Source: Candidatus Aenigmatarchaeota archaeon (GTDB lineage: Archaea; Aenigmatarchaeota; Aenigmatarchaeia; GW2011-AR5; JAHLMP01). From it: a stretch of 24,000 nt of DNA. Made by a program: the position numbers and the translations under genes. Position 1 is the stretch's first letter, and each line of letters begins with the position of its first letter. Below the pieces are notes generated by a model. That model was given only the letters and a program-made list of their open reading frames with translations. It did no database searches and was not told where the DNA came from. Shown piece by piece: positions 2,934 through 16,844 of the stretch. The DNA lies in the NCBI GenBank assembly GCA_039000375.1, contig JAWBTS010000005.1, positions 1,149 to 25,148 of the forward strand, read 5' to 3'.

Positions 2934-3788
2934 ATGACAAGCTATTCAAAGTTTTGCTATAAGCACTTTGGAAGTCTAATAAAGCCTTTGAGAAAGTACT
3001 TCCTAGATGTTAAAACAGATCTTAAAATAGCTCACTTAGCATTTACCTTAGATGAGTATCTTTCAATGGCATTCTTTACAACTCTTATAACTTTTATGCT
3101 TGAGACAATAATCCTTTCATTTATTTTTGGATTATTTTTCGATGTCTTTGTTTCAGTTTCTCTCGCAACAACGCTATCCTTTGGAATAAGTGGTATAGTT
3201 TTCTTTTTCTTTTATTCATATCCTAGAGTTTTAAGCAAGAAGAAGGAAGATGAGATAGATAAGAAACTACCTTTCGCAACATCTTATATGGCAGCCCTTT
3301 CAGCAGGAAAGGCATTACCATTATTTATATTTAGCACTATTGCAAGGTTTAAAGAGTTTGGAGAGGTTGCAAAAACTGCGAGTAATATTAGTAGAAATAT
3401 AACATTCTTTGGAATGAATTCTGTCGAAGCTATGAGAAAGGAAGCTTCTGAAACACCATCAAAAAATTTTCGCGAACTTCTTTGGGGAATGGCGACCTCT
3501 GTTGCAAGCGGCACTGATTTAGCGATATTTCTTAGAGAAAAGGCAGATTTGCTCATGAGCGAATATAGAAGAAAGATTGTTCGCTTTTCTCAAGAGCTTT
3601 CAATGTATATAGAAATATATTTAACGCTTGTTATAGCCGGCTCTATAATGTTTACTGTTTTAACTGCTGTAATGGCAGGCGCTGGATTAGATGTAATAAT
3701 TATTCAATTCTTTATAATATTTATTTTACTTCCTTTTACTTCGATTGCTTTTATTTTATTGGTTAAGATGAGATCCCCAACAGGATAA
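2934..3788 (+). CDS. Type IV pilus/archaellum platform protein, half-size (T2SSF domain; FlaJ/TadB/EpdJ-like)
   Basis: Polytopic membrane protein. A cytoplasmic segment LPFATSYMAALSAGKALP...GMNSVEAMRKEASETPSKNFRELLWGMATSVASGTDLAIFL matches the T2SSF/FlaJ domain pattern. Confidence 0.75.
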   Translation: MTSYSKFCYKHFGSLIKPLRKYFLDVKTDLKIAHLAFTLDEYLSMAFFTTLITFMLETIILSFIFGLFFDVFVSVSLATTLSFGISGIVFFFFYSYPRVLSKKKEDEIDKKLPFATSYMAALSAGKALPLFIFSTIARFKEFGEVAKTASNISRNITFFGMNSVEAMRKEASETPSKNFRELLWGMATSVASGTDLAIFLREKADLLMSEYRRKIVRFSQELSMYIEIYLTLVIAGSIMFTVLTAVMAGAGLDVIIIQFFIIFILLPFTSIAFILLVKMRSPTG

Positions 3789-3806
3789 TTATCAAGTGAA
3801 ATTAAA

Positions 3807-4757
3807 ATGAAAGGAAAAAAATTGGAGTTGAATGAAAAAAGCATATTGCTTATATCTTCGATTCTATTCTTCATAATTCTAATCTTGGCAAGCTTTACCT
3901 ATCAAAACATAGCTTTGTTTGTTAACTTAATAATCATTGGAGTAATGGTAATAATACTTCCTTATTCAATATTTAAATTTATCAAGTTTCAGAACTTGAG
4001 AAACTGCGAGATGAATTTTCCTAATTTTCTAAGAGATATCGCTGCAGCAAAGAGAAGTGGGTTAACATTGATACAAGCTATAAAGACTTGTGCTGCTTCT
4101 GATTATGGAGCGCTAACACCACATGTTGTTAGATTAAATAATCAGCTTTCCTGGAACATTCCACTAAAAGATGCTTTAGAGAATTTTAGAAATAGGTTGA
4201 AAGATAGCCAAATAATTTCGCAATCAATCTTAGCTATTTCTCAGATAGAAGAATCAGGAGGAAAATCTGAAGATATACTTGACTCCTTAGCAGATAATGT
4301 AGAAGGAATAAAAGAAGCTGAGCTTGAGAAAAGCGCTTTAATGAGCCAGCATATAATGGCAGTCTATGCAATATTCTTCATATTCTTAGGAATTTCTATA
4401 GCTTTGATAGCTTTTTTGCTAAAGTTTCCGCAAATACCTGGAACAGAAGAATTGCCAGGCATACCATTTGGCCAAAATCCTTGTAAGATTTGTATAAACT
4501 CTATGTCTGATGCTTGTTCTCCATGCCATTTTTATTTTATTATTTGCGAAGCTTTTAAATTTGGAAAGAAGGAGAGTGCAAGATGTTATTACAATTCTAT
4601 ATTTTTACTTATGATTATTATAGAAGGAGTATTTTCAGGATTAATAGCTGGACAGATTGGCTCTAACTCTATAGCTGCAGGTTTAAAGCATTCGTTAATA
4701 ATGGGTATTTCAGGATTTTTAATATTTATTATAGCAGCTCAGATAGGCATAATTTAA
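3807..4757 (+). CDS. Second half-size platform protein (T2SSF domain; FlaJ/TadC/EpdK-like) with a Cys-rich insertion
   Basis: NFPNFLRDIAAAKRSGLTLIQAIK...WNIPLKDALENFRNRLKDSQIISQSILAISQIEESGGKSEDILDSLA is T2SSF-like and is flanked by TM segments. The start is preceded by AGTGA (SD-like). Confidence 0.75.
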   Translation: MKGKKLELNEKSILLISSILFFIILILASFTYQNIALFVNLIIIGVMVIILPYSIFKFIKFQNLRNCEMNFPNFLRDIAAAKRSGLTLIQAIKTCAASDYGALTPHVVRLNNQLSWNIPLKDALENFRNRLKDSQIISQSILAISQIEESGGKSEDILDSLADNVEGIKEAELEKSALMSQHIMAVYAIFFIFLGISIALIAFLLKFPQIPGTEELPGIPFGQNPCKICINSMSDACSPCHFYFIICEAFKFGKKESARCYYNSIFLLMIIIEGVFSGLIAGQIGSNSIAAGLKHSLIMGISGFLIFIIAAQIGII

Positions 4758-8809: not shown

Positions 8810-9105
8810 GGTTGTAATTCGAATAATGTTAGAATTTAAATGACCGGATAGCAAGATTCATATTACATTTTTGCATGAAAGTTAGAATTAGATTAGTTTA
8901 TGATTGAAATCTCGCTAATTTTTATGGCATTATCTCTATTAAGTTTGACTCTATCTCTATTGTTTTTTATTAATATCATCATGCTTATTTTCTCGCGTTT
9001 AAGCAAGAAATAAACCTTTGAGCGATAAATAAAAATAGTCCAGTTTCTTACAAGAAAATGATTTAATTCTAAGGACCTACTTTTAATCCATTTCAATATA
9101 AACAA

Positions 9106-9210
9106 TGGGCCCGGAAGGATTTGAACCCTCGACCTGCTGGTCCGAAGCATCGGCACGATTTAAAATTTCTCAAGCGTTCAGCCGCTCTATCCAAGCTGAG
9201 CTACGGGCCC
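9106..9210 (-). tRNA. tRNA-Arg(UCG) with a 30-nt non-canonical intron between positions 30 and 31
   Basis: Reverse complement: GGGCCCG UA GCUC AGCUUGGAUA GAGC G GCUG[intron]G CUUCGGA CCAGC AGGUC GAGGG UUCAAAU CCUUC CGGGCCC A. Removing 9149-9178 restores a 5-bp anticodon stem and a loop with U33 and G37. The mature RNA is 75 nt. Confidence 0.75.
9149..9178 (-). other. tRNA-Arg intron (BHB)
   Basis: A central 4-bp helix CGGC/GCCG is flanked by 3-nt bulges UG|A and AU|G. The outer helix is GAG/CUU and the inner helix is ACG/CGU. Confidence 0.65.
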
Positions 9211-11476: not shown

Positions 11477-12175
11477 TCAATATCTTAAAATCGATGTTAA
11501 CTCTTCTTTTTTATCTTCTCTCTCGCTACCTATCTTATTTTTAAAACATTCAATGGAATCTCTTCCCTGAATTTCAATAACATATAATTTATTTTTCTTA
11601 TCTTTATTTGCTATGCAATAAACCCTTGCTTTTATGCTTTCTATGTCAAGCATTCTTTGAATTAGCTTCAATAAATTAAAAGAATAGCTGCTTGCTCTTA
11701 TTCTAATCTTTCTCTTCTTTCTATTTTCCTTTTTGTCATAATAATAAACAACATTAAAAAAGCCTTTTGCATCAAAAAACCCGCGAAGAAACATTATTCT
11801 AAGATTAGAATATTCATCTAAGATTGTTATATTTTCTAATGCTATACTTTCTTTTATCTCTTCTAAGTTTTGAATCCATGCTCTTATATCTTGAAAAATT
11901 TTCAAATAATTTTCTGAAAGATTTGCAAAAACTAAATAATAGATTTTATCCTTTCTTCTCTTTTCCTTTATCCTAACATTATTGGAAATTTTTTCCAGTT
12001 TATTTTTTACGATTTTTGCTAAATCTTCATCTGAGGTTTCTAAGGTTAGCCTTCCATCTTTTATGTTGCCTCTATTACAAAATACGCCAAGTATATAAAA
12101 TAAATCTTCTCTATTCTCAAGTATTTTTTTCTCTTGCTTTTTATTATGTTCAAAAGTATCTTCATTCATCTTCAT
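11477..12175 (-). CDS. Free-standing LAGLIDADG homing-endonuclease-like protein with two motifs, the first degenerate
   Basis: The second motif IMFLRGFFDAKGFF is a close LAGLIDADG match. The first, LFYILGVFCNRGNI, keeps the helix pattern but has N/R where the acidic residue is expected. About 230 aa fits a monomeric double-motif enzyme. Confidence 0.55.
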   Translation of the reverse strand: MKMNEDTFEHNKKQEKKILENREDLFYILGVFCNRGNIKDGRLTLETSDEDLAKIVKNKLEKISNNVRIKEKRRKDKIYYLVFANLSENYLKIFQDIRAWIQNLEEIKESIALENITILDEYSNLRIMFLRGFFDAKGFFNVVYYYDKKENRKKRKIRIRASSYSFNLLKLIQRMLDIESIKARVYCIANKDKKNKLYVIEIQGRDSIECFKNKIGSEREDKKEELTSILRY

Positions 12176-12246: not shown

Positions 12247-12392
12247 CTAGAAATAAAATGAAATTTTTTATGAAATTTTTTATTTATAGATTCGTTCTAT
12301 GCAACGATTTGTAAAAGATAAAAATTTAAAATTTCGAAAGCTATAGTTAAGTTAAAGCGGGGATGGCAGAGCGGCAATGCGACCGCCTGCAG

Positions 12393-12453
12393 TTTTAAGA
12401 AATTTGCTATAGATTTTGGAAAAGCTAAAATAAAGCTAATGAGCAAAGCAGAA
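12393..12453 (+). other. tRNA-Cys intron 1, canonical 37/38 (BHB)
   Basis: The central helix CUGC (12387-12390) pairs with GCAG (12448-12451). The bulges are AG|U and AA|A. The anticodon stem ACCGC/GCGGU serves as the outer helix. Confidence 0.75.
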
Positions 12454-12474
12454 AGCGGTTCAGCTGGGTTCGAC

Positions 12475-12488
12475 ATTTATAACGAAAA
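12475..12488 (+). other. tRNA-Cys intron 2, T-loop 59/60 (BHB)
   Basis: The T-stem CUGGG/CCCAG is the outer helix and the central helix is UUCG (12469-12472)/CGAA (12483-12486). The bulges are AC|A and AA|U, and the inner helix is UU/AA with a 3-nt loop. Confidence 0.7.
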
Positions 12489-12764
12489 TCCCAGTCCCCG
12501 CTTTATGCTTTTCTCTAATTTTTAACCTTCGTTTTTCTCCAATTTTAAAAATTTTTAATTAAAATTTTTGCCAAAATTTCAATAAAATTCGATGCTTTTA
12601 GCATTTTGTTGCTAAATTTATTAAAAAATTTAAAATTTGAATTAAAAATTAATAAAAATAAAAAATATTTATTTGTAAACTTTTAAACGAAAAATTTTTA
12701 TTTTTTAAAAATTAAAACAAAAATAAATAATGTTATATATTTAAGGATTGAAATTGTTTCACGA

Positions 12765-15354: not shown

Positions 15355-15999
15355 CTAAGGTAATATCCTAACAACTTCATAATAAGTTACATCTCCTTCA
15401 TTATCTACTATTGCCCATAGCATTCTAGCTCTGATATTATGGGCAAGCCTCACAGCCCTTGAAAGCTCTTGGAAAGAGCACGTATAATCTTCAGGCACGC
15501 AAAAAACAACCCATTTTGTATGCTCTTTTTGCGATTTAGGGCCGCGCTTTAATTCTACACCTCTTTCATAGCATCTAAAGTCGCAGCCAAACTTAAATCC
15601 TGTTTTTACTAAAAGGCCTCGGTCTCTCAAATCTTCATAAACACGATATCTATGGGAAAATCTTTTATCTATGCTACAAGCTATTTTATATAATTCCATA
15701 AAGCTTAACGCTTTTTTAGATTTTTTTGAGATTTTTATTTTTTTGTCTTTTTCTTCTATCTTTTCTGCGAGAAATATCTCTATTCTTCCTTTTTTTAGGA
15801 GGTAAAGAGCTTCTACAAGCGAAAGCTCTATTCTATCATCTAAAATCTTTCCATAATAACCTGGCAAATAAATCTCTTCTTTTCTATCAAAGGCAATAAC
15901 CTTTTCACCAAGAAGATAGCATTTTGGAAGATCTTTATTTTTTTCATTTTTCTTTTCTTTTATTTTATTCTTTTCAAATTTATCGATATCCATGAGCAT
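15355..15999 (-). CDS. endA: tRNA-splicing endonuclease
   Basis: LSLVEALYLL, YRVYEDLRDRGLLVKTGFKFGCDFRCYERG, KEHTKWVV and AVRLAHNIRARMLWAIVDNEGDVTYY are colinear with the short archaeal EndA (M. jannaschii type). It carries a Lys-rich insertion EKIEEKDKKIKISKKSKK. Confidence 0.85.
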   Translation of the reverse strand: MLMDIDKFEKNKIKEKKNEKNKDLPKCYLLGEKVIAFDRKEEIYLPGYYGKILDDRIELSLVEALYLLKKGRIEIFLAEKIEEKDKKIKISKKSKKALSFMELYKIACSIDKRFSHRYRVYEDLRDRGLLVKTGFKFGCDFRCYERGVELKRGPKSQKEHTKWVVFCVPEDYTCSFQELSRAVRLAHNIRARMLWAIVDNEGDVTYYEVVRILP

Positions 16000-16100: not shown

Positions 16101-16475
16101 ATGAGAAAAAAATTCACTTATTTGCTTAGTGGTTTGTTAGGTATAGGTTTAGCTTTTGGAGTTTATTGTGGCCTTTCGAAGTACATAGAAAAGAAAAATT
16201 CTGATAGATTATATTATTCTCATCCTTGTAGTAGAGAAGTGGAAGAGTATAAAAAACTATTAGAATCGATGGGAATGCCAGAAATAGAAGAATTAAGATT
16301 ATTAGAATGTGAGTGCAGAAGATTAGCAAAAGAAGAGGCAGAAGTGAAAGCAGCTTTAGAAAGACTGGAAAGAGTTTTAGAAAGCATAGAAAATGTTAAT
16401 CGAAAATTAGAAGAAAGCATAGAAAATGTTAATCAAGAAGTAGAAAGATTATTAGAAGAATTAGAAAATAGATAG
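16101..16475 (+). CDS. Membrane-anchored coiled-coil protein (hypothetical)
   Basis: N-terminal TM segment LLSGLLGIGLAFGVYCGL, then an E/L/K-rich helix containing a duplicated 11-aa unit. GGAGTGA SD upstream. Confidence 0.65.
   Translation: MRKKFTYLLSGLLGIGLAFGVYCGLSKYIEKKNSDRLYYSHPCSREVEEYKKLLESMGMPEIEELRLLECECRRLAKEEAEVKAALERLERVLESIENVNRKLEESIENVNQEVERLLEELENR
16380..16434 (+). repeat. Tandem 33-bp duplication inside the CDS
   Basis: GAAAGCATAGAAAATGTTAATC occurs at 16380-16401 and 16413-16434, encoding ESIENVN twice. Confidence 0.8.
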
Positions 16476-16516: not shown

Positions 16517-16590
16517 TGGGATGGGTGGGATTTGAACCCACGACACCACGGTCTTCAGCCGTGCGCTCTCCCAGGCTGAGCTACCATCCC
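16517..16590 (-). tRNA. tRNA-Phe(GAA), intronless
   Basis: Reverse complement: GGGAUGG UA GCUC AGCCUGGGA GAGC G CACGG CUGAAGA CCGUG GUGUC GUGGG UUCAAAU CCCAC CCAUCCC A. Confidence 0.95.
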
Positions 16591-16657
16591 TTAAAATTTT
16601 CTCTTATTACTTCTTTCATGCACTCTTGGCACGTGAGGGAGTTTCAATCCATTTCCA

Positions 16658-16844
16658 CGCCCTTGGCAGGATTTTTGCGATTTTCACATCGAAAATCTCT
16701 TTTAACTATTATTTTTTTATTCTTAATAATTTTACAATTTCTCCTCTTGCTTCAAATTCATTCCCAAAACATGATGTGAAAATCGCTTCGAACCTGCGAC
16801 CTTCTGGTTAACAGCCAGACGCTCTACCACTGAGCTACAAGGGC
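16658..16844 (-). tRNA. tRNA-Asn(GUU) with a 115-nt intron in the T-loop (59/60)
   Basis: GCCCUUG UA GCUC AGUGGUA GAGC G UCUGG CUGUUAA CCAGA AGGUC GCAGG UUCGAA[115 nt]U CCUGC CAAGGGC G. All stems are complementary and the mature RNA is 72 nt. Confidence 0.8.
16672..16786 (-). other. tRNA-Asn T-loop intron
   Basis: Closed by a 13-14 bp helix: 16677-16690 pairs with 16773-16786. The BHB register has a central helix UUCG/CAAA (one C.A mismatch) and bulges AA|G and AA|U. Confidence 0.7.

Follow-up and report, generated by a model that had tools for sequence, protein, structure and literature searches.

A probable bulge-helix-bulge intron in the T-loop of tRNA-Asn(GUU), beside a gene for a loop-bearing splicing endonuclease, in Candidatus Aenigmatarchaeota

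Introns of archaeal tRNA genes occur at several non-canonical positions, among which 59/60, in the T-loop, and 30/31 have both been listed (PMC4090602). The closest described counterparts of the element reported here are the 59/60 introns of Crenarchaeota, and of Thermoproteales in particular. According to that literature (Marck & Grosjean 2003; Sugahara et al. 2008; reviewed in PMC4090602), these occupy the same site, use the T-loop as one strand of the central helix of the splicing motif and are removed by the tRNA-splicing endonuclease EndA together with a ligase. In DPANN archaea, Kaneta et al. (PMC5829648) associate alpha4-type EndAs carrying an extra 'L3' loop with larger numbers of disrupted tRNA genes. 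Here we describe a tRNA-Asn(GUU) gene from Candidatus Aenigmatarchaeota, a DPANN lineage, which carries 115 nt at position 59/60. It lies in a 24,000-nt stretch of assembly GCA_039000375.1 (contig JAWBTS010000005.1, positions 1,149 to 25,148; about 31% G+C), hereafter the window, whose coordinates are used throughout. Judging from its sequence and that of its relatives, we consider it about 90% probable that the locus is a working tRNA-Asn(GUU) gene with a genuine intron spliced through a bulge-helix-bulge (BHB) motif.

The gene occupies positions 16658-16844 of the minus strand and would yield a precursor of 187 nt and a mature tRNA of 72 nt. Its 5' exon, GCCCUUGUAGCUCAGUGGUAGAGCGUCUGGCUGUUAACCAGAAGGUCGCAGGUUCGAA (16787-16844), covers tRNA positions 1-59 and ends with the T-loop bases UUCGAA. 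The 115-nt intron follows (16672-16786), and the 3' exon, UCCUGCCAAGGGCG (16658-16671), supplies U60, the T-stem strand CCUGC, the acceptor strand CAAGGGC and the discriminator G73. Joined, the two exons regain a full canonical cloverleaf with acceptor stem GCCCUUG/CAAGGGC (7/7 pairs), T-stem GCAGG/CCUGC (5/5), T-loop UUCGAA^U (the caret marks the splice junction), anticodon GUU and discriminator G. An earlier note on this DNA, made from the letters of the sequence, had placed the two exon blocks at these positions and had stated that they form a cloverleaf only once the 115 nt are removed, both of which are confirmed. ARAGORN calls tRNA-Asn(GTT) on the spliced sequence and makes no call on the unspliced locus, where the Rfam tRNA model likewise recognizes the 5' block only (16789-16844, 36.5 bits). 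The minimum free energy (MFE) structure of the precursor consists of the cloverleaf plus a helix closing the intron, at -58.5 kcal/mol (z = -5.6), and none of 200 shuffled sequences was as stable.

Both junctions fit a BHB in the 3-4-3 register, whose outer helix is the 5-bp T-stem and whose inner helix comprises 13 bp formed by the intron ends. In the central helix, the exon strand U54 U55 C56 G57 (16789-16792, minus strand) faces the intron strand CAAA (intron nt 110-113; 16674-16677), giving G57-C, U55-A and U54-A pairs and a C56.A mismatch. The flanking 3-nt bulges are A58 A59^G1 (16786-16788) and A114 A115^U60 (16671-16673), both on the minus strand, and their geometry predicts cleavage after A59 and before U60. 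The underlying rule, a cut after the second bulge nucleotide, is also exact for the introns of tRNA-Arg and tRNA-Cys in the window and for 20 distinct 59/60 introns (see below). The locus thus shows the elements of a relaxed BHB, namely symmetric bulges (AA^G and AA^U), the proper spacing and at least one flanking helix, and bears out what the earlier note had described as a relaxed motif with one C.A mismatch in a 4-bp central helix.

Several features weigh against this interpretation. The central helix is paired at three of its four positions, which, together with competition for C110, sets it apart from the strict hBHBh' motif with a fully paired 4-bp central helix. The mismatch is also unusual, as a C56-G pair is present in 18 of the 20 distinct 59/60 introns described below and only the window's intron and one other lack it. 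C110 can pair either with G57, as the BHB demands, or with the first intron nucleotide G1, extending the inner helix to 14 bp. This sharing, which the earlier note had missed, is resolved in favour of G1-C110 in free RNA, with a pair probability of 0.997, and adopting the BHB register costs 8.5 kcal/mol relative to the MFE of the free precursor. Since energy models do not predict the central helix, its support must come from comparison.

That comparison rests on 84 loci from Aenigmatarchaeota, in which we collected T-loop interruptions at 59/60 validated by ARAGORN. Artefacts were removed, the presence of a central helix was not a selection criterion, and the isotype labels that ARAGORN gives to multi-intron genes (such as 'tRNA-Stop' or 'tRNA-Ser'), which are unreliable, were left unused. 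The collection holds 20 distinct introns of 11-183 nt, against 83 tRNAs with intact T-loops. Nucleotides 54-57 pair with the four intron nucleotides preceding the 3' bulge in 92.5% of cells, compared with 16-52.5% in slid registers. Position 57 covaries with its partner, forming G-C in 10 introns, A-U in six, G.U in three and another combination in one. Only 2 of 500 column shuffles reached the observed pairing or covariation. Complementarity in the central helix is therefore kept across independent introns, and this is the strongest evidence for a genuine BHB intron.

The tRNA-Asn loci of relatives, designated here by L numbers, lead in the same direction. Across the phylum, tRNA-Asn is kept upstream of the EndA gene, often with tRNA-Phe following it. 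Where a tRNA-Asn can be recognized next to EndA, in 27 loci, the T-loop is intact in 19 and eight carry an insert exactly at 59/60. Four of these inserts belong to the same species group (115, 114, 112 and 112 nt); the others are those of L005 (76 nt), L006 (11 nt), L015 (70 nt) and L055 (42 nt). All eight loci splice in silico to tRNA-Asn. Contigs nearly identical to the window come from a second metagenome-assembled genome (MAG) and two read-set assemblies, and independently assembled members of the species group carry the intron with 95.7-98.3% identity (L001-L003; the L004 copy is cut off by a contig end). The four strain-level copies differ at four sites, all of them in the intron interior; the exons, the BHB and the closing helix do not vary. 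Most of the interior has been deleted or replaced in L005, with the first 9 nt and the last ~28 nt persisting. The earlier note had called 115 nt long for this class of intron. The window's intron does rank third among the 20 distinct introns, after those of 183 and 139 nt, but it is not extreme within the range of 11-183 nt. The bin names of some relatives suggest a hot-spring origin, on a reading of the names alone.

The splicing endonuclease required for such a gene is encoded 660 nt away. The EndA gene (15355-15999, minus strand; Pfam PF02778 and PF01974) specifies 214 aa with one N-terminal and one catalytic domain, and the Asn-Phe-EndA order recurs in relatives. Its product is 100% identical to an NCBI entry annotated 'tRNA-intron lyase' in a Candidatus Aenigmatarchaeota MAG (contig JAWBQA010000005.1, GCA_039000285.1). 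Among structures in the PDB, 1a79 from M. jannaschii is the best match over the full length (1e-33), and 3iey_A also matches (1.3e-27). A single polypeptide within the ~180-215 aa range, with one N-terminal and one C-terminal domain, corresponds to the alpha4 type, and we call the enzyme alpha4-like; it may work as a homotetramer or together with a separate beta subunit. Between the catalytic Tyr and His it has a basic insertion of six residues, KRGPKS, which the M. jannaschii enzyme lacks. In the alpha subunit of N. equitans, an enzyme of broad specificity, the segment aligned with this insertion, without gaps, is PKKGKRSE. The motif [KR][KR]GP[KR] is found in 111 of 118 EndA homologues. KRGPKS is a candidate for the 'L3' loop, for which PMC5829648 gives no coordinates and on which the N. 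equitans structure paper is silent. An uninterrupted tRNA-Phe(GAA) gene (16517-16590, minus strand; Rfam 66.9 bits, also called by ARAGORN) follows tRNA-Asn after 67 nt. The interval separating EndA from the tRNA cluster holds a reading frame for a small coiled-coil-like protein of 124 aa (16101-16475), which contains a 33-nt tandem duplication with 91% identity (16379-16444, plus strand), seen in the protein as an 11-residue repeat.

A plausible splicing pathway can be assembled from these elements. The tRNA-Asn gene would be transcribed, probably jointly with tRNA-Phe. In the precursor, the T-stem would serve as outer helix, U54-G57 would pair with the intron's CAAA as central helix, one C.A mismatch included, and A58-A59-G and A-A-U60 would form the two 3-nt bulges. 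The 13-bp helix of the intron ends would act as inner helix and keep the splice sites together despite an AU-rich, largely unconstrained interior. The neighbouring alpha4-like EndA, with its Nanoarchaeum-like basic loop, would then cut both bulges, and a ligase of the RtcB type, as in the established archaeal pathway, would join the exons and probably circularise the intron. The T-loop could be formed and modified only after splicing.

The closing helix deserves closer attention, since the earlier note saw in it one half of a possible conformational switch. Its 5' arm, GCGAUUUUCACAUC (16773-16786, minus strand), begins the intron, and its 3' arm, GAUGUGAAAAUCGC (16677-16690, minus strand), ends five nucleotides before the intron does. 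The 14-nt arms are perfectly complementary, invariant among strain variants and paired with a probability of 0.99-1.0, which bears out the perfect 13-14 bp helix claimed for the intron ends (probability ~1.0 at 37 °C). The 82-nt interior is 78% A+U (74% for the whole intron), slightly below the 'over 80%' first given. As the earlier note had reported, GAUUUUC occurs twice and GAAAAUC once in the intron, and the second GAUUUUC copy (16691-16697, minus strand) could pair with the 3' arm in a local 7-bp hairpin (16679-16697). In a switch, the 3' arm would toggle between the splicing-competent closing helix and this incompetent hairpin, thereby gating tRNA-Asn maturation. The second copy is hardly fortuitous, GATTTTC arising anew in only 0.2% of shuffled interiors (P ~0.002); the 3'-terminal ~28 nt, including a GAUUUU copy, are kept in the shorter L005 variant; and a hairpin formed during transcription could precede strand displacement by the 5' arm. 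The competing folds fail, however, at equilibrium. The closing helix has a probability of 0.998 at 37 °C, 0.991 at 55 °C, 0.964 at 70 °C and 0.752 at 85 °C, against 0.0, 0.0, 0.0001 and 0.0056 for the hairpin, and enforcing the hairpin costs 9.8 kcal/mol. In L005, moreover, an additional AAAAUC ties up the second copy in an 8-bp hairpin of its own, and the retention of the copy there is not independent because L005 is a close relative (95% EndA identity). Same-site introns of other lineages have no such duplication. We thus regard a switch as very unlikely: a transient co-transcriptional hairpin may form, a regulatory switch finds no support in the modelled ensembles, and the GAUUUUC repeat looks like the relic of a duplication rather than a conserved device. 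The prediction for 70 °C is an unfolded interior, with the closing helix as the sole robust intron structure, which suggests that the helix's job is to hold the splice sites together.

Two further explanations would assign the insert another nature altogether. Introns excised from archaeal BHBs are known to circularise, and the 115-nt product might be a functional RNA, either a stable circle or a guide RNA like the box C/D-bearing tRNA-Trp introns; its length, unusual for a 59/60 intron, and the stable stem that the 14-bp closing helix would form in an excised circle both speak for this. The intron nevertheless has no C/D or H/ACA boxes, as noted from the start, with neither RUGAUGA nor CUGA in its 115 nt, and Rfam searches of it at gathering and permissive (E<=5) thresholds returned no family, including no snoRNA or sRNA. 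Variation between strains is limited to the interior, which is also unstructured at 70 °C and mostly deleted or replaced in L005, and a functional RNA appears even less probable than a switch. Least probable of all is a tRNA-Asn pseudogene created by a small non-autonomous transposon resembling a miniature inverted-repeat transposable element (MITE), for which the perfect 14-bp terminal inverted repeats and AT-rich interior are the attraction. Of the attributes of a MITE, only those repeats are present: the junctions TTCGAA^...^TCCTGC show no target-site duplication, and no second copy was seen in the window, the 84 Aenigmatarchaeota loci or a metagenome scan. The scan, with TGTGAAAATCGCAAAAA from the intron 3' end, gave at least 120 hits, not one of which had tRNA context or the partner arm, and a 17-mer is too short for a metagenome collection to make it informative on mobility. 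BLAST of the intron against the 204 fetched loci found copies solely at tRNA-Asn of the same species group and of L005. Furthermore, the position of the insert is precisely the one at which a 3-4-3 BHB can form, the exons are perfectly kept in four assemblies, unrelated inserts at the identical position in relatives follow the same pairing rule, and the syntenic tRNA-Asn copy is intact in relatives. A group I or II intron and an integrase attachment site were also considered and ruled out by the 115-nt size, the lack of a reading frame and of direct repeats, and the exact BHB fit. The reading of the insert as a BHB-spliced intron is the one we retain.

How such introns spread is suggested by their families, which we defined by all-against-all BLAST. 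Family W, which comprises the window's species group and L005, is restricted to the tRNA-Asn T-loop. Family A unites the T-loop intron of L015 tRNA-Asn (3689-3758) with D-arm inserts in the tRNA-Asn of L021 (~805-890), L030 (~3463-3550) and L041 (~2537-2676), whose boundaries are approximate since many alternative deletions give an ARAGORN tRNA-Asn. Family B groups the T-loop intron of L055 tRNA-Asn with those of tRNA-Phe in L073 and L072, and with L067; family C contains L043 and L066. One case is reciprocal. In L055 (3753-3866), tRNA-Asn is interrupted by a 42-nt intron at 59/60 and tRNA-Phe is intact. In L073 (3855-3976), it is the adjacent tRNA-Phe that is interrupted at 59/60, by a homologous intron of 48 nt, and tRNA-Asn is intact. 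The two introns share 29 nt at 96.6% identity (E 3e-8), and the tRNA-Asn exons are nearly identical. Intron families found at different sites or in different tRNA genes suggest transposition in the relatives. The window's own 115-nt intron gives no sign of mobility, family W being confined to one site among the 204 loci. Tentatively, and with slightly less than even odds, the locus could capture one moment of a process, active across the phylum, in which T-loop BHB introns are gained, lost and transposed. This would be a second hot-spot, independent of that in Thermoproteales; introns would hop among D-arm sites and the 59/60 positions of tRNA-Asn and tRNA-Phe genes lying side by side, and would be served by the cluster-adjacent alpha4-like EndA with its Nanoarchaeum-type basic loop. 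If so, the L055/L073 pair would provide a natural system for the study of BHB intron gain.

Some additional observations were made in relatives. The tRNA-Asn of L021 apparently has three inserts, in the D-arm, in the anticodon stem and, with 19 nt, in the T-loop. The tRNA-Phe of L015 (~3776-3894; partial Rfam match of 30.8 bits) has an apparent D-arm insert, which starts with caagcag and separates GGGAAGGTAGTTCAGTCTGGGA from CACACGGCTGAAGACC. L014, a contig of an Aenigmatarchaeota MAG, has an Rfam match to RT-16 RNA (RF03019; 4500-4649, minus strand; 67.6 bits for a gathering score of 50), a family associated with reverse transcriptases.

Of the four tRNA genes in the 24 kb of the window, three are interrupted, two of them in the T-loop. 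The tRNA-Arg(UCG) gene (9106-9210, minus strand) has a 30-nt intron (9149-9178) that the BHB assigns to the non-canonical position 30/31, with central helix CGGC/GCCG and bulges UG^A and AU^G; the intron mode of ARAGORN misplaces it by one nucleotide and leaves an A31.C39 mismatch. The tRNA-Cys(GCA) gene (12357-12502, plus strand; discriminator U73) has two introns, one of 61 nt at 37/38 (12393-12453, plus strand; central helix CUGC/GCAG), the other a mini-intron of 14 nt at 59/60 (12475-12488, plus strand; central helix UUCG/CGAA, without inner helix). Neither ARAGORN nor Rfam detects this gene, and ARAGORN calls it only once the T-loop insert is removed. About 180 nt from it lies a free-standing reading frame of 232 aa with a LAGLIDADG domain (11477-12175, minus strand; PF14528, 39.3 bits, above cutoff), whose link to intron mobility would be speculative. 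Finally, the 14-mer GAAATGGATTRAAA occurs just downstream of both tRNA-Asn (+3; 16642-16655, minus strand) and tRNA-Arg (+12; 9081-9094, minus strand), for 0.09 chance matches expected, and is confined to loci of the same species. Its end resembles the 3' handle ATTGAAAC of repeats from clustered regularly interspaced short palindromic repeats (CRISPR), the Rfam CRISPR-DR match being far under threshold; the CRISPR-DR5 match at 16641-16688 is noise, with 18 bits for a gathering score of 40.

Genes of this kind are easily lost from annotation. Because ARAGORN and Rfam miss or truncate tRNA-Asn and tRNA-Cys, standard finders would score both as missing. According to PMC5829648, disrupted genes probably lie hidden behind the incomplete tRNA sets of DPANN genomes, and the BHB models of tRNAscan-SE 2.0 were trained on Crenarchaeota, Euryarchaeota and Thaumarchaeota (PMC8450103). 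With some 20 distinct 59/60 introns and families shared between sites, Aenigmatarchaeota make intron gain and loss, as well as the substrate range of an alpha4-like EndA, open to experiment.

Compared with described systems, the tRNA-Asn intron is an already known kind of feature, common in this lineage, and a single intron of 115 nt will not surprise a specialist. Long introns in the tRNA-Trp genes of Euryarchaeota occupy 37/38, the canonical site, and contain a box C/D guide RNA; the present intron resembles them in its length of about 100 nt and in its removal through a BHB, but lies at 59/60 and has neither boxes nor an Rfam match. The Thermoproteales introns share its site, whereas here the host is a DPANN archaeon and the intron has 115 nt, a 14-bp closing helix and a C.A mismatch; their (alpha-beta)2 EndA with a Crenarchaea-specific loop contrasts with the alpha4-like single-unit enzyme and Nanoarchaeum-type loop found here. 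Transposition in Thermoproteales (Fujishima et al. 2010, as cited in PMC4033280 and PMC4090602) likewise left homologous introns at different genes and positions in relatives, in another phylum, whereas the window's own family is known from one site only. A further likeness is to the loop-bearing EndAs of DPANN, the epsilon2 enzyme of ARMAN with its ASL and the alpha4 enzymes with 'L3' (PMC3239211, PMC3488258, PMC5829648), which agree in host, in several non-canonical introns per genome and in an additional basic loop close to the active site. Aenigmatarchaeota are not among the four DPANN genomes that the methods of PMC5829648 list as added. What the present case contributes is the Aenigmatarchaeota lineage, the pairing of the intron with a cluster-adjacent, loop-bearing alpha4-like EndA, and a length in the upper range. 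The finding makes Aenigmatarchaeota a further lineage that combines a loop-bearing EndA with numerous non-canonical introns.

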